A stretch of DNA of 64,000 nt from Bacillota bacterium (GTDB lineage: Bacteria; Bacillota; Clostridia; Ch29): assembly GCA_013540605.1 (NCBI GenBank), contig JABVCK010000029.1, forward strand, positions 257,022-321,021. Reading direction: 5' to 3'. Made by a program: the position numbers and the translations under genes. This document shows, piece after piece, positions 5,470 through 18,955 of this stretch. Under the pieces are notes generated by a model that did no database searches, was not told the DNA's origin, and saw only the letters and a program-made list of their open reading frames with translations. Within the stretch, counting starts at the first letter, position 1, and every line of letters begins with the position of its first letter.

Positions 5470-5512
5470 TACTAAGTTGTCAACCAAAAATATAAGAAAA
5501 GGAGGGCTCCTT

Positions 5513-6307
5513 TTGGCTGAAAAAAAGATAAAAATATTAATAGCCGATGATAACAAAGAATTCTGTGAGATTGTTGGGGACTACCTATCCAGGGAAAACG
5601 ATATTGACCTGGTAGGAACTGCAAATGACGGGTTTGAAGCGTTGGAACTGATTAAAGAAACAAACCCCGATGTAGTGGTGCTTGACATTATCATGCCGCA
5701 CCTGGATGGTTTGGGTGTTTTGGAGAAGCTTAATACACTGGAGATTGAAAAAATGCCTAACATTGTTGTTTTATCGGCGGTAGGACAGGACAAGATTACT
5801 CAGAGGGCGCTGGCGCTGGGTGCGGATTATTACATAGTAAAACCCTTTGACATGCAGATCTTCATCAAGAGAATCCGTCAGATGATGGACAACAATATAA
5901 TACAGGTGGAAAAGAGAAGAAAGAATCAGCCTGAAAACTTCTTCACCGAAGGGCAAAGCCTGGACGTAGAGATAACAAACATAATTCACGAGATAGGCGT
6001 GCCCGCCCATATTAAAGGATACCTGTACCTGCGTGAGGCGATAAAAACCGTGGTGAACGATATAGAACTGCTGAGCGCGGTAACCAAGGAACTGTATCCC
6101 AGCATAGCAAAGAAGTACAATACCACGGCGAGTAGGGTTGAAAGGGCAATAAGGCATGCAATAGAGGTTGCGTGGAGCAGAGGCAAGGTAGATACAATCA
6201 ACAGCCTGTTCGGGTACACCATTCACAACGACAAAGGGAAGCCCACCAACTCTGAATTTATAGCGATGGTTGCCGACAAGATAAGGCTTAAGCAGAGGAT
6301 TGGCTAA
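5513..6307 (+). CDS. spo0A: Sporulation master regulator Spo0A (response regulator)
   Basis: There is a receiver domain ([10 protein letters not shown]...[12 protein letters not shown]) and the Spo0A-specific C-terminal DNA-binding domain ([18 protein letters not shown]). The likely start is TTG at 5513, 5 nt after the RBS AAAAGGAGGG. The upstream ATG at 5477 is also in frame. Confidence 0.9.
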
Positions 6308-6444: not shown

Positions 6445-7239
6445 TCAATGGAGTGAGGGATTGCCTGTGGTTGGTAAAATACCAACAGTTCCGAAGAATA
6501 CCGTTCGGAAGCTGTTGGTATTTTTATACTGTCTAACGGTTGCTTTCGGGATTTTTGTCTTGTAACAATTTTTCATATTTTCGTAATACCGGATGATAAG
6601 CTTTCCTTGTCTAAGTTGGTCAGGATATTTTGATAAAACAGATTCTAATAAATCCTCTAGGCGGTTCTGACAGTGTGTATTGCCTGGGTCCAAGTAAAGA
6701 GCAATGGCTTCGGAATATTGCCCGGCAAAGGCAGCAGATATTTGATAACCGGTTTTGCCTCTTTTTCTGGGGAAGTATCCTTTATCGGCAAACTCATAGG
6801 TCTTACCACCTGCTATTAGGCCAGACATATCAACATCAACGATGACATCATTATGAGAAGCAGTAGAAAGACTATGTTTGCCAAATAGCTCATTATGAAT
6901 ACTCTGAAGCTGCTTTATGTTTTCCTCACCGGTACGGGTGAGCAGGGTATTAATCTGGGACTGGTCTGGGAAGCGTTCCATACCGAGTAGGTTTGCAGCC
7001 AACTTCTCAGGACCTAATACCTCATTAATGTCTTTGGTAGACTCACAGCCCATGGCTATAGAAGCTATGATAGTAAGTAACTTTTGGTAAACGTAGTATC
7101 TGACTTCCTTCATCTTGAGGCTGAAAGCCTTAAATGGTGCGAAAAAATTAATATCAAGACCAAACTGCAGCACAGATGCCAGCCATGCAGAAGTAGTTTC
7201 CTGGTTGCAATCACTATTTGAAACTGTTATCCTATCCAT
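6445..7239 (-). mobile_element. Truncated DDE transposase. Only the N-terminal roughly 264 aa of an IS4-superfamily (IS1380/IS1634-like) transposase survive, making this an IS remnant.
   Basis: The first-D region reads DVDMSGLIAGGKTYEFADKGYFPRKRGKTGYQISAAFAG...YLDPGNTHCQNRLEDLL. This is the same D...G/K...PGNT architecture as the intact IS1634-like transposase at 12205-13842. The ORF stops after 264 aa. The roughly 130 bp left before the spo0A terminator cannot encode the missing half. Confidence 0.6.
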
Positions 7240-7383
7240 AGGGTAATACCACCTTTCGATTAGTGTTTTGATGAATTATTACTTCGATAGGCTCGGGTAT
7301 TGCCCTCTTTGTATTTGTTGGGGTATTTACCATGGATTATATATCCAATTAATCTTTATTTGTTTGTACTAAATCTAGGTAAC

Positions 7384-8040
7384 TATAATGATTATTTTAC
7401 TCAAGAGGCAAAGAAAAGAAACAGCCGGATATTTATTGCAGATGAAAAAGAAATCCCGGATGGTTATCTGGAAAAGTTTAGATATATTGTTTTCCCGGAA
7501 AATATTGCTATTGCACTGGCTGCAGCTAAAGCGCTAAACATTGACAAGGATACTGCGTTGAGGGGAATGTTAAACGCTGACCCTGATCCGGGCGCCTTAA
7601 TGATATATCCATTAGATAACGAAAGCCCAACATATTTTGTCAATGGTTTTGCCGCCAATGTTCCAAACTCAACACGAATGATCTGGGAGCATATAGCAGC
7701 CATCGGATATCCAACGGAAAACCCCATGGTAATTGTAAATTGCAGACCTGATAGGGTTGATAGGACATTACAGTTTGCAGAAGATGTCTTGCCAAATATG
7801 AATATTGATATTCTCGTTGCAATGGGTCAGACAGTGAAACCAATTACTGAAGGGGTAAATACTAAAAAATATCTCCACAGAAATACATAAATGCTGAAGG
7901 TTTGTCTCCACATGAGGTTTATAAAATAATTAAGGATTATTTTTTAAACAGAATAATTTTTGGCGTTGGAAACATTCACGGCGGCGGGGAAGAATTGGTC
8001 GAACTAATAATTACGGATAAAGTGCCGCAATTACTTTAGA
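7384..8040 (+). pseudogene. pgsB: C-terminal remnant of poly-gamma-glutamate synthase PgsB/CapB. It is truncated at the 5' side by the IS remnant and frameshifted near the 3' end.
   Basis: Collinear with B. anthracis CapB residues about 190-end. The segment KKRNSRIFIADEKEIPDGYLEKFRYIVFPENIAIALAAAKALNIDKDTALRGMLNADPDPGALMIYPL...FVNGFAANVPNSTRMIWEHIAAIGYPTENPMVIVNCRPDRVDRTLQFAEDVLP aligns to KERNTKVIIADNSKITDEYLRKFEYMVFPDNASLALGVAQALGIDEETAFKGMLNAPPDPGAMRILPL...FVNGFAANDAS...IMNCRADRVDRTQQFANDVLP. The last part (NRIIFGVGNIHGGGEELVELI vs NRVIYGVGNIHGAAEPLIEKI) is in a different frame. The switch is at an A6 run around 7862-7880. The N-terminal roughly 190 codons are absent. Confidence 0.75.
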
Positions 8041-8349: not shown

Positions 8350-9219
8350 ATGAAAAAAGAATTTATCAAAATTCTAGCTTTAGTTGTAGTGTTTACATTT
8401 GGTATTGGTATAAGCACATATGCCTTCACAACAGGTTATAGTAGTTTTGATGAACTATTTGCATCTGAAGATGGTGCAGATTATACAATTAAAACTGATA
8501 TCGGAAGCGATACAACAATTTTAGCTCTCCACGGAGGCGGTATTGAAAGAGGTACTTCGGAATTAGTTGAAGCATTGAGCGGGTACGGTGAATATAACAC
8601 TTACTTATTTGAAGGACTTAAAGAGACTAATAATTGGAGTCTTTTTTTAAGGGCCATCGATTTTGACGAACCAACAGCCGTCAGTTTAGTCCAAGATTCG
8701 GATTACACTCTTTCAGTTATCGGAGCTGCAGGCGATGACGAGGTTACTTATATCGGTGGTCAGAATAAGTTGCTGGCAGAACTGATCAGATTGCATCTTA
8801 TTACCAAAGGATATAAGGTAAAAACTTTAAGCCTTCCTGATCGCATTGCCGGGATTATGGACAGCAATATAGTGAATAAGAATAAATTGCTTAATGGCAG
8901 TTATCAGATCGGCGGCGTTCAGATAGCTATTTCCAAAGGTTTAAGAGATAAACTCGTAGCTGACTCCAGTATATTAAACGATTATTCAGACTCCATCCAT
9001 GAAGCGCTAAGCGAAAGCTGGCCAATAATAGTTTCCCACTTGCAGAAAATTACTAAATCCGGCGGGTCTAAATCTAATGGGGTTAACGGGTTTTTGAATA
9101 AGCTTAACCCTTCAAAGCCTAACTTCGATAAGAAGATAAATAAGATATTAGAAAAAGATGCAAAGACTCCCCAGGATTTACTTGAAAATGTTGAAGACGA
9201 TCTATTGACAGAAGAGTGA
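8350..9219 (+). CDS. PghP-family poly-gamma-glutamate hydrolase paralogue (secreted). It is likely catalytically impaired.
   Basis: Signal peptide present. There is a conserved HGGGIERGTSEL block and a DFDEP block. The paralogue's SIHG His is Ile here (SVIGAAG). The LEIS Glu is Ala here (GGVQIAIS). Confidence 0.7.
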   Translation: MKKEFIKILALVVVFTFGIGISTYAFTTGYSSFDELFASEDGADYTIKTDIGSDTTILALHGGGIERGTSELVEALSGYGEYNTYLFEGLKETNNWSLFLRAIDFDEPTAVSLVQDSDYTLSVIGAAGDDEVTYIGGQNKLLAELIRLHLITKGYKVKTLSLPDRIAGIMDSNIVNKNKLLNGSYQIGGVQIAISKGLRDKLVADSSILNDYSDSIHEALSESWPIIVSHLQKITKSGGSKSNGVNGFLNKLNPSKPNFDKKINKILEKDAKTPQDLLENVEDDLLTEE

Positions 9220-9291: not shown

Positions 9292-9984
9292 CTACTGAAT
9301 GCTGCTGATTGCCTCACTTATTGCGGAAACATAGCTTTTCAATCTATCGTTATTACCCGATAAAAACTGTGTCCTTAAACCCTTTGATATTTCTAACTGT
9401 ACTCCTCTTCCGTTCATATTCTTATTCACTATATTATTTGGCGATATACCGGCCAGATTCTTCGGAGTATCTAACACAGTAAAACCGTACTTAGTCAGAG
9501 ATGCTTTTATTCTGTTTCCTAATTCAGTGTCGAGGCCTCCGATATAGGTGAATTCTTCTGAACCGGAACACCCATGGATTGATAATGTCGTTTTAGATTT
9601 TGAAACCATTTCCAATGCAGTTGGTTCATCGAATTTGTCTGAAGTAATATGCAATTCTAAATTACCTTTGCTTTTTATGCCCATATATGAATAATAGTTG
9701 TAATTATTATGGGAAGATAAGGCATAAGCTAATTCAGTAGTACCTTTTTCAATTTTTCCTCCATGAATTGCAATAACTATAACATCAGAATCTGTCACAT
9801 TGGTTTCAATTTTATAGTCAACATTTTTTACTTTATTTGAACTTAATTCTTTGAAATTGTTATAGATGTCACCAGAAACTGCAGCAGTTGGCTGACTAAA
9901 CATCAAAATTGTAAGACAACAAGAAACAATAAGTCGTGTAGAACTTAAAAAACTGTATTCTCTCTTTATAATCATACCTATCAA
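9292..9984 (-). CDS. PghP-family zinc-dependent poly-gamma-glutamate hydrolase (secreted)
   Basis: Strong collinearity with phage PghP / Bacillus YndL-type hydrolases: IHGGKIEKGTTEL, LHITSDKFDEP, SIHGCSGSEEFTYIGG, NNIVNKNMNGRGVQLEISKGLR. An N-terminal signal peptide is present. Confidence 0.75.
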   Translation of the reverse strand: MIGMIIKREYSFLSSTRLIVSCCLTILMFSQPTAAVSGDIYNNFKELSSNKVKNVDYKIETNVTDSDVIVIAIHGGKIEKGTTELAYALSSHNNYNYYSYMGIKSKGNLELHITSDKFDEPTALEMVSKSKTTLSIHGCSGSEEFTYIGGLDTELGNRIKASLTKYGFTVLDTPKNLAGISPNNIVNKNMNGRGVQLEISKGLRTQFLSGNNDRLKSYVSAISEAISSIQ

Positions 9985-10170
9985 CTCACTTTTCTTATGA
10001 ATGCTATATTCTATTATAAAGGATTTTTTTTTGCATTTCAGCAGTTATTGACAATTATCGTGTATTATTTTCAACTATCTCATGTATATTATTTCTGTTT
10101 GCAAAGAAGGAAGATAATAGAAAATAGCGAATGGTAGTATATAGAAGAAAGGCATTATTATTTATGAGGT

Positions 10171-11325
10171 ATGAAGATGGAATTATGGGACTTATACGAT
10201 GAAAATAGATGTTATTTAAACAGAACTCATTCTCGAGAAGCGTTGATGGTCACTGGCGAATATCATATAGTTGTGGAAGTATGGACAGCCAACAGCAGGG
10301 GTGAAATTCTGCTAACCCTTCGGCATCCGAACAAGAAGGATTATCCGAACACATGGGAGAATACCGGAGGTTCCGCTTTGACAGGAGAGAGCAGCAGAGA
10401 AGCCGCAGTTCGAGAGTTAAAGGAGGAGACGGGTATTGCGGCATTGGAATCAGAACTTACATTATTGGGTACTAAAAAGGAAGAAACAGCATTTGTAGAT
10501 ATCTATATAGTTCATAAAGATATTCCTGTTGAAAGTTTGACCATGCAAGAGGGTGAAACTGTTGAGGCACAATGGGTATCATTGAAAAGGCTTGATGAAA
10601 TAATCTCCGAAGGCTTGTTGGCACTGCCAGTGGTTGAACGTCTCAAGCCCATACGTGAAGAATTCGAAAAACATGTTTTAATGAATAAGAGATTTAAAGC
10701 AATATGCTTTGATATGGATGGTACATTAATCAGAAACACGAACTCAGTCGAGTTTTTATGCAGATTAAACAATAGACATCAAGAGGCAAAAGAAATTGAA
10801 GAAAAGGAAGACCTTGGTGAGCTTTCCTGGATAGAAGCAGATCATAGAAAGGCTAAGCTTCTTGAGGGATTGGAAGTAAGCAGGATCAAGGATAATTTTG
10901 ATAAATATATAAAAGTAATACATAACCTGGATATGGTTTTAAGAAAGCTCAGAGATACCGGATTTAAAGTTATACTGGTTACAGCCGGACTTGTTCAGGT
11001 TGCAGAAGAATTCAGCGCTGTACATCCGTTTGATAAAGTCTATGGGAGTAATTACGAAGTAATTGAAGGTAAGTTCACCGGCAGGATCATAAAACACCTG
11101 GGAGATAAGGGAAAGCTAAGCTCTGTAATTGATTTTTGCGAATTTTGCAAGATATCCATTGATGAAGTAATTTCGATAGGGGATAGCGCATCAGATCTAG
11201 AAGTTTTTAAACACAGCGGAAAGTCTATAGCAATTAACTATTCAAAAAAACTGGTCGGAAAAGCTGATGCATATATTGAAACAGAGAACTTAGAAGAAAT
11301 CTTGAAGTTTATAATAACTGACTAA
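10171..11325 (+). CDS. Bifunctional Nudix hydrolase / HAD-superfamily phosphatase fusion (PSP-like)
   Basis: The N-terminal half has a perfect Nudix box GX5EX7REUXEEXGU (GSALTGESSREAAVRELKEETGI). The C-terminal half has HAD motifs I (FDMDGTLI) and IV (GDSASDLEVF) and a phosphoserine-phosphatase-like cap. Confidence 0.8.
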   Translation: MKMELWDLYDENRCYLNRTHSREALMVTGEYHIVVEVWTANSRGEILLTLRHPNKKDYPNTWENTGGSALTGESSREAAVRELKEETGIAALESELTLLGTKKEETAFVDIYIVHKDIPVESLTMQEGETVEAQWVSLKRLDEIISEGLLALPVVERLKPIREEFEKHVLMNKRFKAICFDMDGTLIRNTNSVEFLCRLNNRHQEAKEIEEKEDLGELSWIEADHRKAKLLEGLEVSRIKDNFDKYIKVIHNLDMVLRKLRDTGFKVILVTAGLVQVAEEFSAVHPFDKVYGSNYEVIEGKFTGRIIKHLGDKGKLSSVIDFCEFCKISIDEVISIGDSASDLEVFKHSGKSIAINYSKKLVGKADAYIETENLEEILKFIITD

Positions 11326-11468
11326 AATAATGAAACAGATTGTAAAAGAGCACAGGAATTTGCCATGGGAATAAAAAAACATTGATCCAGTAGGTTTTTC
11401 AGAATGAAAACCCGGCAACAAAAACTGGCGGATTAACGTCTAATTTTATATAATAATGAACGACAACT

Positions 11469-12251
11469 TTGAAGAAAGCGAGCATATCCATGGAGAATAT
11501 CAGGCAGGAAATATATATGGCAATTGGAACGTTATGGTCATTTCAGTGTATTTATTTGGGTATCAAGAAACGAAAAGGCAAAAACTTCTACCACGAGCCA
11601 AAACTCATGAACCTTTTACCAACAGGCGGCAGTACACTTCTATTGGTGTACGACTTCATGGAAGCCTGGAAACTGGGTACCGACAGCGTTTCAAATTTTA
11701 ACATTATACTACTTGGAATATTGGTTTTATCGACCGTTTTCGTTGTTTTTAGAAGCTTTTTGGGTGGTAAAAAGTATACGGTCTATAATATTGCCAAAAC
11801 CGACATTGAGGCAATATTGCTGCAGACATTGAAAAAGTATGAACTGGAATGCAAAAAAGAAGAAAAAAATCCCCATTCCATAGTAACCAAGATATTACTA
11901 GAACAATACGATGCTTCTGTAGAAATGACGCAAAGGGGAGGAAGCGGGACCACATTCGATTTGGTATTTGAAAAATTCGACCGGGTATACAATTTTGAAG
12001 ATATAGTTGCGGATATTAAGGAGAGCATTAATGAAAGCACAAAAGTTAGCAGGTTCCGGGGTGTACACGAATTTGCAGCCGCTATTGGAATTGTATTGTT
12101 TTTTGTTTGGATGAGTATTCCTGAGTTTAGGAGAAAAGAGTGCAAAAAACGCTGTGACGCCTTTAGTGGAGGCGTTTCAGCGTTTTTAAAAATGTCCTAT
12201 TTTTTTAAGTTGACGGATAAATCCAGTTTTGTGCTTGCCCGGAATGCGTGA
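11469..12251 (+). pseudogene. Small membrane-protein gene disrupted by IS insertion. Its original C-terminus resumes at 14253-14278.
   Basis: The ORF runs from the gene into the IS end. The last 94 bp before the IS (12015-12108) are repeated after the IS (14159-14252). In the second copy the frame continues into ...IGIVLFFVLFTPTTFS*, which is the native C-terminus. Confidence 0.55.
12015..12108. repeat. 94-bp direct repeat, left copy, flanking the IS1634-like element. It is a long target-site duplication.
   Basis: 94/94 identical to 14159-14252 (attaaggagagcattaatgaaagc...ttgtattgttttttgttt). Confidence 0.85.
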
Positions 12252-14158
12252 GGGTCATATTGCTTTTGAGCAATGGTTGCTTGAGGGTCTCTGCCAAATC
12301 CAGATAAGTTTGTGTGATCCTTGTTGGTGTCACAATGTTGTTTGGAAAATCGCCCTGCACCAGAACCAGGGGTTCCCTTATCGCTTCCATAATCCGGGCC
12401 GCCGAGACACTGATATTCTTCTGCGTTTCCAGGATGTATTGAGCATATCGCAACATACACAGACTGATGAAGCATATTGCAAAATGACCGTGAATGTGGT
12501 CGTCGGTCCATACAAAGACCGGGCGAGCTCGTAAATCGGTCTTTAGAACCCGGAAACTTTCCTCAATCTTCCATAGCCCTCTGTAGATAGTGCTGACCTG
12601 CTCTGTACCCAGAGCAAGATGATTCGTGATGACTGCGTAGTAGCCGTCATACCGGGCAGCAGCCTGGATTTTCTCTTCATCAATAGTCCAGTTTTCGGAG
12701 TCCAGATCCATCTGCAAATACTGATTGCAGCCCCGCCTGATTGCGGCTTTCAGCTGATATGGTTTATCCAACCGCTTCTTCAGCCGCTCAATCATGCGTT
12801 CCCGGTCAGACCGGTCCTTGGCTGCCCGCTTTGCAGACCAGGTCAGATGGATGTTCACCGGAATCTCTTCGGTCCTGTACTTTCTGGGTCGCCCTCTCTT
12901 TTTGTTTTCCTTGTTTTCTTCCGGCGCAACCGGGACTTTGATCTCAATATTCTGCCGAACAATCTTCGACCGAAACGTCACTTCCCCGGTCTCCGGATCC
13001 ACCACATCCTGCCAGTCTTCTTCCTGCCAGACCAGTTCCTTAAAGGCTTCTGGAGACCGTTTAAGCGTGTAACTGATTACAAAGTCATAACCTTCTCCAA
13101 TGAGGTATTCCAGATTGCTTCCGCTGTTGAGACCCCTGTCGGCCACCACGGTAATCCTGTCCAAGCGATACAGGTTCCTGAGATTTTCAACAGACTTTCT
13201 TAGCGTGCTCTGGTCCACCGTGTTTCCAGGAAACAGTTCATAGGTAATGGGAATGCCATTATTATCTAGCAACAGGCCCATGACCACCTGCACCTCGTTA
13301 TTTTTGTGATCCTTTGAAAAGCCGAACATTCTCAGTTCCCCCCAACGGGTACTCTCAAATGCATACGTTGTGACGTCATAGTAGGCTTCCGTGCTGTGGC
13401 GGTCGGTCTTCTTTTCGAAGAAGGTGCACAGATGTCCAATCAGAGCCTCTTTTTGATCCGCCAGGACATCCAGTACATCATAAAAAAGATCCAGACCCAA
13501 AGGTTGAATGCCGGCATAGCGGTGCTGTTCGGATGCACCGGCATGGATGCTTGTGGGACTGGCACAGCGGTGGGCGGCCAGGTAATAAAGGGCCTGGGCC
13601 ACGGCTTGGGCATTACGTTTGCCGCAGTTTTGAATGAAAAACTCATCCAGTGCCATGTGGTTCCACAGTTGTTTCACCAGGGCATGGCCGAAAGCATAAG
13701 AGGGGACAACGTCCTCAGGTAGGGTGATGTCCGCCACCGGAACCTGAAGTGACAGGGGTGCCCTGGATAGTTTTTGTTCCTTCGTGATCCGGGCGGCCTC
13801 TTTTTTTAGTTTCGCTATGATATCCGGGTCTTCGGTCAGCATCCGCTCGTAATTGCCCAGGGTTTTGACGACCCGGGTTTTCTTTTTCTTGGTGCCCGGG
13901 ATGCGGGATCTTCCCGGAACTGGATGACCCGGGCTTTTCCTGAGCCTGTGATGGCAACGTACATAAAACCCTCCTGCGTATTTGTCTATTTGAACTCATT
14001 GTATCATTTCGAGCACCAAAAATCAACAATATAACAGGAAATAACAGGACAAAATATTGAGATAAATTTTGCATCAAAAAAACCCGGGAAACCTGATAGA
14101 TTCAGCATTCTCGGGTGGTACTATTCGTTGTTATTGGCGATTATCTCCTAAAGTCAGG
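12109..14158 (-). mobile_element. IS1634-family insertion sequence, about 2.05 kb
   Basis: It is bounded by the 94-bp direct repeats. Imperfect terminal inverted repeats are CCTGAGTTTAGGAGA (12120-12134) and the reverse complement of TCTCCTAAAGTCAGG (14144-14158). It encodes a 545+ aa DDE transposase. Confidence 0.8.
12205..13842 (-). CDS. IS1634-family DDE transposase. The body is the 545-aa ORF. The first roughly 30 codons are encoded in the 0 frame starting at 13964 (-1 relative to the main ORF).
   Basis: Typical IS1634-family blocks are present: YYDVTTYAFEST...FGFSKDHKNNEVQVVMGLLLDNNGIPITYELFPGNTVDQSTL, ADRGLNSGSNLEYL, and YDGYYAVITNH...WKIEESFRVLKTDL. The upstream ATG at 13964 encodes MYVAITGSGKARVIQFREDP. 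This is the family's MxVxxTxSGK N-terminus. It lies in another frame with no stop between it and the main ORF. Confidence 0.8.
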   Translation of the reverse strand: MLTEDPDIIAKLKKEAARITKEQKLSRAPLSLQVPVADITLPEDVVPSYAFGHALVKQLWNHMALDEFFIQNCGKRNAQAVAQALYYLAAHRCASPTSIHAGASEQHRYAGIQPLGLDLFYDVLDVLADQKEALIGHLCTFFEKKTDRHSTEAYYDVTTYAFESTRWGELRMFGFSKDHKNNEVQVVMGLLLDNNGIPITYELFPGNTVDQSTLRKSVENLRNLYRLDRITVVADRGLNSGSNLEYLIGEGYDFVISYTLKRSPEAFKELVWQEEDWQDVVDPETGEVTFRSKIVRQNIEIKVPVAPEENKENKKRGRPRKYRTEEIPVNIHLTWSAKRAAKDRSDRERMIERLKKRLDKPYQLKAAIRRGCNQYLQMDLDSENWTIDEEKIQAAARYDGYYAVITNHLALGTEQVSTIYRGLWKIEESFRVLKTDLRARPVFVWTDDHIHGHFAICFISLCMLRYAQYILETQKNISVSAARIMEAIREPLVLVQGDFPNNIVTPTRITQTYLDLAETLKQPLLKSNMTLTHSGQAQNWIYPST

Positions 14159-14252
14159 ATTAAGGAGAGCATTAATGAAAGCACAAAAGTTAGCAGGTTC
14201 CGGGGTGTACACGAATTTGCAGCCGCTATTGGAATTGTATTGTTTTTTGTTT
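14159..14252. repeat. 94-bp direct repeat, right copy
   Basis: Identical to 12015-12108. Confidence 0.85.
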
Positions 14253-14736: not shown

Positions 14737-15429
14737 ATGAGAAAAATGCTGCCTGATACAATTAAACTGATTTTATTCGACATGGCAGGTACGACAGTAG
14801 ATGACCGATGCGCCGGTTCATCTTTTGTTGTCAGCGCATTCATCAAGTCATTCAACAAACATGGATTTGAAGTGAGCCTGGAGACTGTTAATAAATATAG
14901 AGGAATGCAAAAGCGTCAGGCAATACATGACATTATTAGCAGTATTGATCAGGATCGAAGTTCCGGGGAAATAATAGACGGCATTTATAAAGAGCTTTTA
15001 TCAGAACTAAAGGTTCATATTCCCAAAATGAAGGAAATTGAAGGCACCAGTGAGATATTTCACTTCCTGCAAAGTAGAATGATTAAAGTAGGTGTGGGAA
15101 GCGGTTTCCCAAGGGAAATTATTGACATGATAGTATCACAGTTGGGCTGGAAGGCTAAAGGCCTGGTTGACTATATCCAAAGCGCAGACTCTATTGGGGC
15201 AAGCCGGCCAGACCCCAAAATGATATACCACATGATGAATGAATTTGGCATATGCAATCCCCATGAAGTAGTAAAAGTGGGGGATACGGTGGTGGATATT
15301 CTTGAAGGCAAAAATGCCGGTGTCTGGACGGTGGCAGTATTAACCGGTTCACAGTCTAAAGAGCAATTAGAATCTGTGGGACCGGATTATATGCTTAATA
15401 GTGTCAAAGATCTGCCTACATTATTTTAA
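14737..15429 (+). CDS. HAD-superfamily hydrolase, PhnX-like (phosphonoacetaldehyde-hydrolase-like)
   Basis: Motif I FDMAGTTVD matches the phosphonatase-type DxAGT. Motif IV is VGDTVVDILEG. The start is uncertain among 14707, 14737 and 14746. Confidence 0.7.
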   Translation: MRKMLPDTIKLILFDMAGTTVDDRCAGSSFVVSAFIKSFNKHGFEVSLETVNKYRGMQKRQAIHDIISSIDQDRSSGEIIDGIYKELLSELKVHIPKMKEIEGTSEIFHFLQSRMIKVGVGSGFPREIIDMIVSQLGWKAKGLVDYIQSADSIGASRPDPKMIYHMMNEFGICNPHEVVKVGDTVVDILEGKNAGVWTVAVLTGSQSKEQLESVGPDYMLNSVKDLPTLF

Positions 15430-15466
15430 TCCTATTTTTCAACAAAATAAAGAAAGGAGAGAGAAT

Positions 15467-16114
15467 ATGGTTAAACAGCAAAACATAAAAAATAGGGGGA
15501 TACTTTTCACCTATGACAGTTTTCCAGAGTGCGGCTTAAACATCTATCTTATAAAAGGGAAAAGATTCAACTACATTATTGATACCGGATTAGGCCCATT
15601 AAGCCTTGAGCCGGTAAAAGAACACATAAAAAACGATGGCAAACAGGTTATAGTAATCAATACCCATTACCATTGGGATCATATCTGGGGCAATAATGAA
15701 TATAAAAATTCAGTGATTGTATCCCACGTACTGTGCAGGGAAATCATCGAGGAAAAGTGGAATGAGATGATGGGCAAGTATAATGATTATTGTTATGGAC
15801 CGGTAGCAAAATGCCTGCCGAATTTAGTTTTTGAATCAGAGATTTACTTTCCGGAAGACAAAATCAGGCTATTCCATACGCCCGGACATACGATAGATTC
15901 CATCAGCATTCTCGATGAAGAAGAAAAAGTAATTGTAGTTGGGGATAATGTTGGTGACACAATAGAAGAACTTATTCCAAGCATTTATTCTAAAAAGGAT
16001 GATTACATAAATACATTGAAAAGATATGAAGAATTGGACTTCGATACTTGTATATCAGGGCATAACGTAGTCTTAGGGAAAGAAGCGATAGGAGAAATTC
16101 TGAAGATGCTGTAA
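15467..16114 (+). CDS. MBL-fold metallo-hydrolase
   Basis: HYHWDH (HxHxDH) zinc-binding motif, a downstream HTPGHT motif, and RBS AAGGAGAGAG. Confidence 0.8.
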   Translation: MVKQQNIKNRGILFTYDSFPECGLNIYLIKGKRFNYIIDTGLGPLSLEPVKEHIKNDGKQVIVINTHYHWDHIWGNNEYKNSVIVSHVLCREIIEEKWNEMMGKYNDYCYGPVAKCLPNLVFESEIYFPEDKIRLFHTPGHTIDSISILDEEEKVIVVGDNVGDTIEELIPSIYSKKDDYINTLKRYEELDFDTCISGHNVVLGKEAIGEILKML

Positions 16115-16204: not shown

Positions 16205-16496
16205 GAATAAAGATTATAAGTAATAATGAAAAGGCTTTGACGAGGAGGAGTATATATCTCCCTGAAGCGCAGAGAGGGGATGAGGGTGGAAATTCCCCGT
16301 GAAGGGTATATAGAAGGTAGCCTCCGAGCCGTGAACCGAAATCTTGTGAGAGTAGACTTCAACGGATTTCCACCGTTACAGGGGAGGTAGTATCGGCATG
16401 TATGCCCGTACTATGTCTGAGTGTGTACATTTGTACGAACCTAGGTGGTACCGCGGAGATTCAAACCTTCGTCCTATACAGGGCGAGGGTTTTTTA
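16205..16496 (+). promoter_or_regulatory. T-box riboswitch leader of valS
   Basis: The conserved T-box sequence AGGTGGTACCGCGG is at 16443-16456. It is followed by terminator stem CCTTCGTCC...GGGCGAGGG plus a T6 run. An AGAGA-containing stem I region lies upstream. The specifier codon is not confidently assigned. Confidence 0.75.
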
Positions 16497-16537
16497 TTGC
16501 GAAGGCCAATATACATAACACAGGGGAGGTATTTTAT

Positions 16538-18955
16538 ATGCTGGAAAAGAAGTATGAATTCAAGGAAATAGAGCCTAAGCTGCAAAAATTCTGGGAAGGG
16601 GAAGGGATATACCATTATGAGCCGGATAGTTCAAAGGGCGTATATTCTATAGATACACCGCCGCCTACGGTAAGCGGGAACCTGCATATAGGCCACATTT
16701 TCTCCTATACCCAGGCTGAAATGATTGCAAGGTTTCACAGAATGCAGGGACAAAACGTGTTTTATCCCTTTGGATTTGACGATAACGGTCTGCCCACAGA
16801 GAGGCTTGTAGAAAAGGAAGAGGGCATAATAGCTCAAGACATGCCAAGGAGTGAGTTTATTAAGAAATGTATGAGTACCACACAAAAATACGAAGCGGAA
16901 TTTAAAGAATTATGGCAATCCCTTGGTTTTAGTATTGATTGGAGTCTTCAATATGAGACTATCAGTCCCCTGGCTCAGAGAATATCTCAAAGGTCATTTT
17001 TGGACCTCGCCAGGAAAGGGAAAGCATATCTGAAGGAAACGCCCGTGTTATGGTGTACCAGCTGCCAGACCTCGATTGCCCAGGCAGAATTGGACTCTTT
17101 AGAGAAAGAAGCTGCTTTTAACTGGATACCGTTTCAGGTTGAAGATGAAGAACTCATAGTTGCAACCACAAGGCCCGAGCTGCTTTGCGGATGCGTTGCT
17201 CTACTCATCCATCCTGAAGATGAACGCTATGTTAAGTATATTGGAAAGGAAGCAATAGTACCGCTGTATGATTTCCCGATACCGATTTTGGGAGATAAAA
17301 AGGTCAGTAAGGAAAAGGGTACCGGTATAGTAATGTGCGCAACCTTTGGCGATACTACGGATTTGGAATGGTATAATGTTTACAGGCTTCCGTACAAGAA
17401 AATCATAAATCCCGATGGAACTATAAGTGATGATGTACCTTTTATTCACGGCCTGAATGTTGGAGAGGCAAGGGAGAAAATAATCAACAAGCTAAGGGAA
17501 GAAGGCCTTTTGAAAAGGAGTGAAAAGATACTCCATACCGTTGCTGTCCATGAAAGATGCGGCAAAGATATTGAAATAATCACTTCAAAGCAGTGGTTTA
17601 TTGATATCCTGAACGATAAGGACAAATTCCTTGATGCTGCTGATAAAATCAACTGGTATCCATCTTCTATGAAGACAAGATATGAAATATGGGTACAGAA
17701 TCTCAAGTGGGACTGGTGCATATCACGGCAAAGATATTTTGGAGTTCCGTTCCCTCTGTGGTACTGCAAGGATTGTGGCTCCATTATATTTGCCAGGGAG
17801 GAGGACCTGCCCGTAAACCCGTTGGAATCTTCGCCAAAAGAGCCGTGCTCCTGCGGGAGCAATAGTTTTATCCCTGAAGATGCGGTCATGGATACATGGG
17901 CAACATCATCATTAACGCCTATGATCAACTCAAAATGGGGAGAAAAGGGAGACGCGAGCCAGAAGCTTTTACCTATGAACATGCGTACACAAGCGCATGA
18001 GATCATTCGTACCTGGGCATTTTACACAATTGTAAAGAGTATATATCATACAGGGCAAATCCCCTGGAAGGATATTATGATTTGCGGCTTTGTAATGGCA
18101 AAGCAGGGAGAAAAAATAAGCAAGTCCAAAAATAATGCCTCATTATCTCCCAAAGCTTTAATCGACAAGTATTCCGCCGACGGTATCAGGTATTGGGCAG
18201 CTAATTCAAAACTTGGAACTGATACAATGTTTTCAGAGGACGAACTACAGACATCAAACAGGTTTTTGACAAAGCTATGGAACGCCGCCAGGTTCAGCGT
18301 GATGCATCTGGGAGATTATCAGAAGCAAAAGGATGTAAAGCTGATGCCGATTGACAGGTGGATTGTGGAAAAATATAAAGATGCGGAAGCAAAAGCAGCG
18401 GCATACCTGGAACAGTATGAGGTCGGTGCTGCACGGTATGAGATTGATGAATTCTTCTGGAAGGATTACTGCGACAACTATCTTGAGATCGTCAAAGAAC
18501 GGCTTTATAAACCTGAAATCCATGGGTATGAGAACAGGCTGTCCGCCCAGTTTGCTCTTTACACCAGTTTCCTTGGCATACTTAAGACGTACGCCATATA
18601 TGTTCCTCATATAGTTGAAGAAATCTATCAGGCATATTTCAGGGAATATGAGGAAACCGCATCCATCCACAAAACCATCTGGAGCAGGGCTGACGAAGCT
18701 GATGAAGATATCCTCCGGTTTGGGGAAACGGTCAAACAGATTTTATTGGAAATAAGAAGATACAAATCAGAGAGAAATCTATCTCTAAAGACCGAGGTGG
18801 ATACTATTCGGATATTCTGCCCGCAGAGCTTTATACCTTTGCTGGAGGAAACAAGGAAGGACCTGCATGCCTGTACCGGGGCCAAAACAATCGAGTTCAG
18901 GGAAGGAGAAGGGCTGGCGGTTATTATTGGCAAGGGAGGATTTTGCTGTTATTGA
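16538..18955 (+). CDS. valS: Valyl-tRNA synthetase, a class I enzyme of 805 aa
   Basis: HIGH region PPPTVSGNLHIGH and KMSKS variant KISKSK. The DTWATSS motif is present. It is shorter than the canonical bacterial ValRS because the C-terminal coiled-coil appears to be missing. Confidence 0.8.
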   Translation: MLEKKYEFKEIEPKLQKFWEGEGIYHYEPDSSKGVYSIDTPPPTVSGNLHIGHIFSYTQAEMIARFHRMQGQNVFYPFGFDDNGLPTERLVEKEEGIIAQDMPRSEFIKKCMSTTQKYEAEFKELWQSLGFSIDWSLQYETISPLAQRISQRSFLDLARKGKAYLKETPVLWCTSCQTSIAQAELDSLEKEAAFNWIPFQVEDEELIVATTRPELLCGCVALLIHPEDERYVKYIGKEAIVPLYDFPIPILGDKKVSKEKGTGIVMCATFGDTTDLEWYNVYRLPYKKIINPDGTISDDVPFIHGLNVGEAREKIINKLREEGLLKRSEKILHTVAVHERCGKDIEIITSKQWFIDILNDKDKFLDAADKINWYPSSMKTRYEIWVQNLKWDWCISRQRYFGVPFPLWYCKDCGSIIFAREEDLPVNPLESSPKEPCSCGSNSFIPEDAVMDTWATSSLTPMINSKWGEKGDASQKLLPMNMRTQAHEIIRTWAFYTIVKSIYHTGQIPWKDIMICGFVMAKQGEKISKSKNNASLSPKALIDKYSADGIRYWAANSKLGTDTMFSEDELQTSNRFLTKLWNAARFSVMHLGDYQKQKDVKLMPIDRWIVEKYKDAEAKAAAYLEQYEVGAARYEIDEFFWKDYCDNYLEIVKERLYKPEIHGYENRLSAQFALYTSFLGILKTYAIYVPHIVEEIYQAYFREYEETASIHKTIWSRADEADEDILRFGETVKQILLEIRRYKSERNLSLKTEVDTIRIFCPQSFIPLLEETRKDLHACTGAKTIEFREGEGLAVIIGKGGFCCY

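Follow-up and report, generated by a model that had tools for sequence, protein, structure and literature searches.

What does it mean when two hydrolases that are nearly always encoded by separate genes appear on a single polypeptide? The question is raised by one gene in a stretch of 64,000 nucleotides (the window) from a Clostridia bacterium of the Bacillota (contig JABVCK010000029.1, positions 257,022 to 321,021 of the forward strand). This gene, at window positions 10171 to 11325, joins a Nudix hydrolase domain to a phosphatase domain of the HAD superfamily. A preliminary description of the locus took the fusion to imply a pathway of two steps, where a Nudix pyrophosphatase delivers a phosphorylated product that the HAD domain then dephosphorylates. 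The protein proves to be real and under selection, with two predicted active sites that are both intact. A bifunctional cytoplasmic hydrolase whose sites work in series is the best overall explanation for it, at a probability of roughly 0.42; two activities that have no metabolic connection are nearly as likely.

Is the gene genuine?

The reading frame and its apparent ribosome binding site are as follows.

10171 to 11325, + strand: Nudix-HAD fusion open reading frame (ORF), 384 codons and a stop, uninterrupted, with a probable start at 10177
10166 to 10169, + strand: Shine-Dalgarno-like GAGG, 7 nt upstream of the ATG at 10177 but just 1 nt upstream of that at 10171

The preliminary description spoke of a single ORF of 384 amino acids. 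The frame is indeed uninterrupted, and the three strings quoted from it are all found where they should be (GSALTGESSREAAVRELKEETGI at residues 67-89, FDMDGTLI at 180-187, and GDSASDLEVF at 337-346). The product, however, is likely to have 382 residues (MELWDLYD...), because the spacing of the GAGG suits the second ATG, at 10177, and not the first. The identical database protein (P0001; NCBI MBA1337040.1, named "Phosphoserine phosphatase [Firmicutes bacterium]") is annotated with this same 382-residue start. Residue numbers below follow the longer frame.

Any unusual fusion might, of course, be an error of assembly or a frameshift, or else a newly fused pseudogene on its way to decay. Two features of this locus would fit such an origin. 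The window allele has leucine at position 274, a near-invariant proline beside motif II of the HAD domain, and the surroundings are rearranged and ridden with insertion sequences (IS). Other samples tell against it. A Logan contig assembled independently (L001, from SRR6186653) shows 100% identity to the window across positions 10107-12044, domain junction included; the frameshift or stop between the domains that might have undone the description is absent. The cluster of the protein at 90% identity has three members, drawn from NCBI, JGI, ENA and Logan data; one (P0387, in JGI 3300001095 and ENA ERZ27315029) differs from the window protein by one residue, the other (P0386, in SRR30852966 and SRR27840291) by 35. 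The fusion is present in at least five independent samples or assemblies.

Divergence within the cluster is informative as well. Between the window gene and that of P0386, which lies on the relative contig L173, there are 100 nucleotide differences (8.7% divergence) and not a single insertion or deletion over 1155 nt. Substitutions per synonymous site (dS) stand at 0.318 and those per nonsynonymous site (dN) at 0.043, for a dN/dS of 0.135; taken by halves, the Nudix part gives 0.074 and the HAD part 0.215. Every catalytic residue is in place, including the catalytic Glu and Asp whose loss would have refuted the preliminary description: E73, R81, E82, E85 and E86 in the Nudix domain, and D181, D183, T271, K315, D338 and D342 in the HAD domain. 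A diverged relative with no indel and a low dN/dS, and independent assemblies that are identical, mean that the gene did not arise from faulty assembly and is not a pseudogene in decay. That explanation is effectively refuted by the assemblies and the divergence, and is now very improbable. The fusion gene is genuine, and both of its halves are under purifying selection while fused.

The Nudix half

10171 to 10680, + strand: Nudix half, residues 1-170, of the IDI/YfcD/DR0079-like "ELWDLYD" family, as placed by Pfam, a family profile, AlphaFold2 (AF2) and Foldseek
10369 to 10437, + strand: Nudix box, GSALTGESSREAAVRELKEETGI, read as G67-x5-E73-x7-R81-E82-L-x-E85-E86-x-G88-I89, an exact regular-expression match to GX5EX7REUXEEXGU

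The canonical box of the preliminary description is exactly that. It matches the consensus at each position, and these positions are invariant across an alignment of 60 family sequences. The Pfam search that was called for finds NUDIX (PF00293) at residues 31-141 with 58.4 bits (cut-off 21.1; E = 1e-15). The AF2 model of this half has a mean predicted local distance difference test score (pLDDT) of 97.7 and finds 594 Nudix-fold matches in the PDB at E <= 1e-3. A box with its catalytic Glu, a score above the curated threshold and the alpha/beta/alpha fold, the marks by which the superfamily is recognized, are all present.

Within that superfamily, the half belongs to a well-defined family with hundreds of representatives, typically 165-180 residues long and beginning M-E-L-W-D-x-Y-D. 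A 60-member profile of the family matches the type-1 isopentenyl-diphosphate isomerase (IDI) of E. coli over the whole domain (E = 8e-17), DR0079 of Deinococcus radiodurans (2e-15) and E. coli YfcD (7e-14). Foldseek likewise returns DR0079, YfcD and the IDIs as closest to the model, with template-modelling (TM) scores of 0.72-0.78 at about 20% identity; the N-terminal extension and the overall fold are common to all of these. With IDI, in particular, the Nudix half has in common an Arg/Lys pair, R51 and K55 (in LRHPNKK), that aligns with the IDI segment RRALSKK.

Might this domain then be an isomerase? Type-1 isomerases have a catalytic cysteine, Cys67 (acting with Glu116), and a degenerate Nudix box; neither is found here. 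The position of Cys67 is Gly throughout the family (WENTGGS, versus WTNSVxGHP in the E. coli IDI), the full REUXEE box is retained, and the two IDI equivalog models give the fusion protein 37 and 28 bits, where the cut-offs stand at 127 and 106. Because the box is kept and the cysteine is replaced, the Nudix half is predicted to be a hydrolase of the IDI-like branch rather than an isomerase. Among solved structures DR0079 comes closest, and it has been called a pyrimidine nucleotide diphosphatase (PMC5389931). The Nudix half keeps the last Gly of the canonical box, which DR0079 does not. YfcD is uncharacterised.

The HAD half

10681 to 11322, + strand: HAD-IB half, residues 171-384, phosphoserine phosphatase (PSP)-like, with a C1 cap, as placed by TIGR01488, a family profile, AF2 and Foldseek
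10708 to 10725, + strand: HAD motif I, F-D181-M-D183-G-T, with the nucleophile and the acid/base Asp (D11 and D13 of the family, both invariant)
10825 to 10860, + strand: cap segment SWIEADHRKAKL with the family-specific W220, D224 and K227; three agreeing alignments put K227 opposite Arg56 of PSP, which binds the carboxylate
10975 to 10992, + strand: HAD motif II, L-V-T271-A-G-L274, with Leu274 in place of a near-invariant family Pro
11113 to 11115, + strand: HAD motif III, Lys315 (K145 of the family, invariant), opposite Lys144 of PSP
11179 to 11196, + strand: HAD motif IV, G-D338-S-A-S-D342, by family alignment and motif match

The preliminary description called this a complete PSP-like HAD domain. 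Complete it is. Pfam HAD (PF12710) is found at residues 179-346 with 68 bits (cut-off 27; E = 2e-18), a match that, like the one to NUDIX, chance does not explain, and all four motifs are there (D181-x-D183-x-T185, T271, K315 and G337-D338-SAS-D342). Placement in subfamily IB follows from TIGR01488 (73.2 bits, cut-off 45) and from the model, where helices H22-92 come after strand 1 to make a C1 cap. The resemblance to PSP also stands. The family profile aligns end to end with the PSP of Methanocaldococcus (M.) jannaschii at E = 1.5e-34 (1e-16 with the single sequence), and the AF2 model, with a pLDDT of 94.9, superimposes on PSPs with TM scores of 0.84-0.90 at about 25% identity. Like M. jannaschii PSP (1F5S/1L7M) and SerB, the half has a Rossmannoid core, a four-helix C1 cap and the four HAD motifs. 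It differs from them in its modest identity (about 25%), in reading GDSASD where they read GDGAND, and in having a Nudix partner.

What does not stand is membership in SerB, the phosphoserine phosphatase of serine biosynthesis. The fusion protein misses both SerB equivalog cut-offs, that of TIGR00338 with 89.7 bits against 144.15 and that of NF008350 with 53.8 against 413. Further, Glu20 and Arg56 of M. jannaschii PSP, with which PSP holds the serine moiety, are not conserved. Opposite Glu20 stands Asn191 (Asn or Asp family-wide), and opposite Arg56 stands the conserved Lys227, on which three alignments agree. The family has invariant cap residues of its own, a Cys, Trp220 and Asp224. Thus, the half is PSP-like in sequence and modelled fold, and its identity as a SerB is not established.

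These facts bear on the possibility that the HAD half is nevertheless a true PSP serving serine biosynthesis, with the Nudix domain appended as a regulatory or ligand-sensing module, much as ACT domains are attached to mycobacterial SerB2. Its best matches in sequence and in fold are all PSPs (M. jannaschii E = 1.5e-34; TM 0.84-0.90), databases use the name "phosphoserine phosphatase" for the fusion protein as well as for its stand-alone relatives, and Lys227 could still bind a carboxylate. The missed cut-offs and the replacement of Glu20 by Asn and of Arg56 by Lys speak against this. So does the placement of the family's genes, which lie in accessory patches and not beside serA or serC, and so does the Nudix box, whose intactness and dN/dS of 0.07 suggest selection for catalysis more than for mere binding. 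A serine-pathway phosphatase with a sensor attached is therefore unlikely.

As a stand-alone protein, the HAD-IB family has 211-215 residues and at least 595 clusters at E <= 1e-20. Its hosts include Alkaliphilus, Geosporobacter, Wukongibacter, Kosmotoga, Clostridia, Zixibacteria, Ignavibacteria and Acidobacteriota, among others, and its hallmarks are CFDMDGTLIRNTxSVxYLC, SWIEADYxKAxL, LVTAGPxQVA and GKSIAINYS.

One position of the window allele stands apart. Codon 274 (10990-10992) encodes Leu in the window and Pro in at least 90% of the HAD-IB family, including all four relatives on contigs L171-L174; it is the sole difference from P0387. The replacement could weaken HAD activity in the window strain; alternatively, it may have no effect, given that PSP carries Phe at the same position.

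How the two halves are joined

10681 to 10683, + strand: Met171, the junction codon and apparently the retained start codon of an ancestral stand-alone HAD gene, since stand-alone HADs begin MN/MK...K..CFDMDG

The junction reads ...EEFEKHVL/MNKRFKAICFDMDG, the division falling after EKHVL, where the C-terminal helix of the Nudix domain ends. Only about five residues lie between the folds; the helix runs nearly straight into the start Met and the first strand of the HAD domain. This arrangement fits an in-frame deletion that would have united two genes. The two halves still differ in GC content (42.1% versus 35.5%).

The closest stand-alone relatives are P0002 for the HAD half (67%) and P0046 and P0076 for the Nudix half (60%), each without the partner next door. 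A pair of neighbours from which the fusion might have arisen was sought and not seen: no Nudix gene adjoins the closest stand-alone HADs, P0002 and P0006, and no HAD gene adjoins the Nudix gene P0076. A non-coding leader of its own precedes the gene of P0002. AF2 was run on the two halves one at a time, because a single fusion lineage provides no signal of inter-domain co-evolution.

How rare is the pairing?

The preliminary description judged the fusion uncommon, and the survey that it proposed bears this out. Among 5.8e9 protein clusters, that of P0001 alone is matched by both halves; an exhaustive scan of 1.84e9 representatives gave 6561 matches, nearly all to one half or the other. The fused form occurs in none of 25 HAD-half orthologues from species-representative genomes. 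Nor is the Nudix family fused to, or found near, the HAD-IB family in any of 80 metagenome loci, gathered with a five-sequence alignment. The exact pairing is found in one lineage only.

Both parts, in contrast, are common alone. Of the 161 members of the HAD family that were fetched (the family has at least 595, the best 120 of them listed), 154 have no more than 236 residues, and the proteins at about 65 of the 80 Nudix loci have some 170 residues. Only three independent groups among the same 161 are truly multi-domain, each of them a Nudix fusion.

Group 1, the window lineage: ELWDLYD-type Nudix, N-terminal
Group 2, P0100/P0388: a different Nudix, C-terminal (reverse order); 266 bits on the family hidden Markov model (HMM)
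Group 3, P0244: MutT-like Nudix, N-terminal; 153 bits on the family HMM (M. jannaschii PSP scores 122)

The Nudix domains of these groups resemble one another only around the Nudix box; they represent three subfamilies, and the groups show both domain orders.

The partners of the Nudix module are more diverse. In 46 multi-domain proteins, these are a second Nudix domain (19), HAD (4), GNAT (3), His_Phos_1, DUF1653, NTP_transf_2 and AAA_18 (2 each), and also DUF1015, APH, MatE, glyoxalase and methyltransferase domains. Two of the four HAD-bearing proteins, P0055 (224 bits) and P0264 (169 bits), have a Nudix domain of the ELWDLYD family. Their HAD domain, however, is of the HAD-IA, phosphoglycolate-phosphatase-like kind, and that of P0055 has thousands of stand-alone homologues, none of them fused. 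Thus, P0100/P0388, P0244, P0055 and P0264, all uncharacterised, each have one half from a family represented in the window protein and a partner whose subfamily differs each time. Because it differs, these proteins are best read as independent fusion events and not as orthologues.

Architectures of the ELWDLYD family other than the HAD fusion are well populated. It often occurs as a Nudix-Nudix tandem (P0034 and P0038, the latter representing 215 member sequences), and other proteins pair it with a P-loop kinase-like domain (P0109, 234 members) or with DUF1015 (P0086). Such arrangements may be more telling about the function of the Nudix family than the HAD fusion is.

Small MutT-type Nudix genes occur near some stand-alone HAD-IB genes. 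In two Natronincolaceae/Clostridiaceae loci (L006 8001-9628 and L028 8001-9675), one of 153 residues lies about 0.5 kb downstream on the same strand; in a third locus (L010), a small one lies 2.8 kb away.

Do the two sites act in series?

A serial mechanism is easily drawn. Two small accessory genes, normally separate, would have been fused in frame in one clostridial lineage and then maintained by purifying selection. The Nudix domain would use its Mg2+-binding glutamates E82, E85 and E86 to cleave the diphosphate bond of a nucleoside di- or triphosphate, or of a nucleoside diphosphate linked to some group X (NDP-X), to give a nucleoside monophosphate (NMP) together with inorganic phosphate, pyrophosphate (PPi) or X-phosphate. 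The HAD-IB domain, with Asp181 as nucleophile, an aspartyl-phosphate intermediate and Asp183 as acid/base, would remove the phosphate from a phosphomonoester. In series, the two would "cleave then dephosphorylate", disposing of some nucleotide-derived compound, and the HAD domain would act on a kind of product that Nudix enzymes share, in the simplest case an NMP or dNMP. For the fusion protein, the order of the steps and the class of substrate are inferences, and the chemistry is taken from that of the two families.

Coupling would here come from co-expression and proximity and not from a channel. A substrate channel between the sites is unlikely, because the tether joins the N-terminal end of strand beta-1 of the HAD domain, at the sheet edge that lies opposite to the catalytic Asp, as the topology of HAD proteins indicates.

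The serial reading finds support in DR0079, a pyrimidine nucleotide diphosphatase, in the ykkC-2c riboswitch described below, a precedent for Nudix and HAD hydrolases regulated together in nucleotide turnover, and in recurrence. A fusion that acts as a Rosetta stone for function should recur independently and should join parts that are separate proteins elsewhere. Both are seen here, the HAD-IB family having been fused three times, and to another Nudix subfamily on each occasion. Of about 400 genes lying within 8 kb of stand-alone HAD-IB members, just 9 (about 2%) are Nudix-box ORFs, so chance adjacency is unlikely to explain why three of three HAD-IB fusions are with Nudix domains; this hints at coupling. 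Since one and the same HAD family has been joined to varying Nudix partners, the substrate of a coupled HAD domain would presumably be a common Nudix product (NMP or dNMP, possibly PPi) and not one particular X-phosphate. From the other side, phosphatases (4 HAD, 2 His_Phos_1) are the largest class of heterologous partners of the Nudix module.

Several observations weigh on the opposite side. A Rosetta-stone fusion should also join parts that, when separate, are co-located or co-occur, and that are not promiscuous; neither holds here, the Nudix module having more than 12 kinds of partner (GNAT, nucleotidyltransferases, APH, DUF1015 and MatE among them). The stand-alone parents are never neighbours: none of 25 HAD loci has an ELWDLYD Nudix gene, and none of 80 Nudix loci has a HAD-IB gene. 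Nor has either family a conserved operon partner in these loci, where synteny holds only at the level of clades. No Nudix-HAD fusion amounts to more than a singleton or a very small cluster. The PSP-type cap, to judge from alignment and model, would suit small phospho-compounds better than nucleotides. Finally, the two activities of YZGD, a Nudix-HAD protein discussed below, are unrelated, as summarized in a later source (PMC5627462).

Thus, the fusion makes two-step action plausible and leaves it unproven, and "implies", the word of the preliminary description, is too strong for parents that are nearly always separate and never adjacent (0 of 25, 0 of 80), for a promiscuous Nudix module, and in view of a precedent, YZGD, that is not sequential.

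Much of this is just what one would expect had a chance in-frame fusion left each half with its own stand-alone job and no metabolic hand-over, the Nudix domain doing house-cleaning and the PSP-like phosphatase acting on an unrelated small phospho-metabolite. To the absence of neighbouring parents and the promiscuity of the Nudix module may be added the absence of a pre-fusion gene pair beside the closest relatives, the confinement of the exact pairing to one lineage in so large a survey (P0055 is likewise a singleton) and the differing GC contents of the halves. YZGD fits as well, its HAD domain being, according to the same summary, a pyridoxal phosphate (PLP) phosphatase unrelated to the substrates of its Nudix domain (PMC5627462). 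Independence is less at ease with the three Nudix fusions, the only fusions among 161 HAD-IB members when Nudix genes are about 2% of neighbours, and with purifying selection on both halves in the fused state. It is a tentative alternative, as serial action is itself tentative.

A bolder version of serial action would read the three fusions as a Rosetta stone for the HAD-IB family as a whole. Its roughly 600 clusters would then be not SerB but the dedicated second step of a Nudix-initiated disposal of nucleotides, for example as (d)NMP nucleotidases that keep sanitised nucleotides from being re-phosphorylated. This is a doubtful extension, although less so than the serine-pathway phosphatase considered above. 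Were it true, the whole HAD-IB family would be re-annotated and a two-enzyme sanitation route defined.

What is at stake differs between these readings. If the halves act in series, the fusion provides an experimental handle on two large families, the ELWDLYD IDI-like Nudix proteins and the PSP-like HAD-IB proteins, and one 43-kDa protein could reveal the substrates of both at once. If they do not, the fusion becomes another case, like YZGD, where promiscuous fusions within hydrolase superfamilies predict pathways poorly, and the main practical outcome is caution over the current "phosphoserine phosphatase" annotation of a protein that falls short of SerB. To a specialist, the fusion would be of mild interest as an inexpensive experimental way into two orphan families, rather than a surprise.

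Genomic surroundings

The fusion gene lies between the gene for Spo0A (5477-6307) and that of a class-I aminoacyl-tRNA synthetase under T-box control (16445-18955). Between and around these are the following.

6445 to 7239: DDE transposase fragment
7300 to 7890: 3' piece of a CapB-like gene
8350 to 9219, + strand: PghP-like poly-gamma-glutamate hydrolase
9292 to 9984, - strand: PghP-like poly-gamma-glutamate hydrolase, divergent from the fusion gene
11469 to 12251: ORF without Pfam match, just downstream of the fusion gene, its 3' end interrupted by an IS
12205 to 13842, - strand: 545-residue DDE_Tnp_1 transposase, within a 2050-bp insert
from 14707: HAD gene of subfamily IA type, 240 residues, 3.4 kb downstream of the fusion gene and unrelated to its HAD domain
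15401 to 16114: MBL-fold hydrolase gene, overlapping the HAD-IA gene by 29 nt
16228 to 16479: T-box leader (Rfam, 108.8 bits; gathering score 93)
16445 to 18955: class-I aminoacyl-tRNA synthetase ORF with a listed GTG start, directly downstream of the T-box and slightly overlapped by it; the true start is probably further downstream

The preliminary description placed the gene in an accessory patch. This is a fair account of surroundings that are variable and rich in IS elements; the gene itself keeps a stable place, adjoining a PghP gene in all relatives. On contig L173, it borders an entire poly-gamma-glutamate capsule locus (CapB, CapC, a 77-residue ORF, PghP, CapA, NlpC/P60 and PghP, at L173 1-7800) and is followed on the same strand by genes for small membrane proteins, a Metallophos/5'-nucleotidase protein and a LUD-domain protein. 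In the window, the remnant of the capsule locus consists of the CapB-like 3' piece, a small ORF and two PghP genes, the rest being missing or rearranged, and the locus looks decayed. A functional link to the poly-gamma-glutamate capsule was considered and set aside, because the fusion gene is divergent from PghP and synteny in close relatives only is uninformative.

Downstream, the order breaks. The near-identical strain represented by L171 is colinear with the window only to position 12119, and its next genes, for a 5'-nucleotidase and a LUD protein, are absent from the window. Because colinearity ends there and these genes are missing, the IS site is a rearrangement breakpoint and not a simple insertion. 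The 2050-bp insert is bracketed by a perfect direct repeat of 94 nt (12015-12108 and 14159-14252), which could be an unusually long target-site duplication; IS1634-type elements produce long ones. The interrupted ORF (11469-12251) matches an ORF of 211-220 residues in relatives, and deleting positions 12109-14252 in silico yields one of 221.

Known Nudix and HAD systems

The nearest precedent is YZGD of Paenibacillus thiaminolyticus, whose domains are said to run HAD first and Nudix second, the reverse of the window protein. It was reportedly described by Tirrell et al. 2006, Biochem J 394:665. Like the window protein, YZGD comes from a Firmicute and combines on one polypeptide a HAD phosphatase and a catalytically active Nudix domain; in the fusion protein, too, both domains are on one chain with their catalytic motifs intact. 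Two later sources describe a PLP-specific HAD domain and a Nudix domain with broad action on NDP-X compounds, their activities not being consecutive (PMC5627462; PMC6002036), and one reports that the HAD domain does not act on the products of the Nudix domain (PMC5627462). Genomic context differs too: the gene for YZGD belongs to a thiamin/thiaminase operon, and no thiamin genes lie near the fusion gene.

A second precedent is regulatory. According to a review of the ykkC-2c riboswitch, an NDP-sensing RNA controls or co-induces genes for NUDIX and HAD-like hydrolases (PMC7266159); here, Nudix and HAD hydrolases are deployed together on nucleotides. Control of the fusion by such an RNA was considered and dropped, Rfam finding only the T-box in the window and no NDP riboswitch upstream of the Nudix family in 40 loci.

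Thiamin offers a third comparison. HAD-IB and Nudix have both been tied to thiamin through fusions (PMC4921024). The link was set aside for the window gene, whose neighbourhood has no thiamin genes; thiamin monophosphate phosphatase, moreover, is attributed to HAD-IA (PMC5627462).

Bifunctional enzymes made of Nudix and HAD domains have thus been known since YZGD (2006), and databases contain further uncharacterised combinations of the two. What is new in the window protein is the pair of subfamilies that it joins, an IDI-like Nudix domain and a PSP-like HAD-IB domain.

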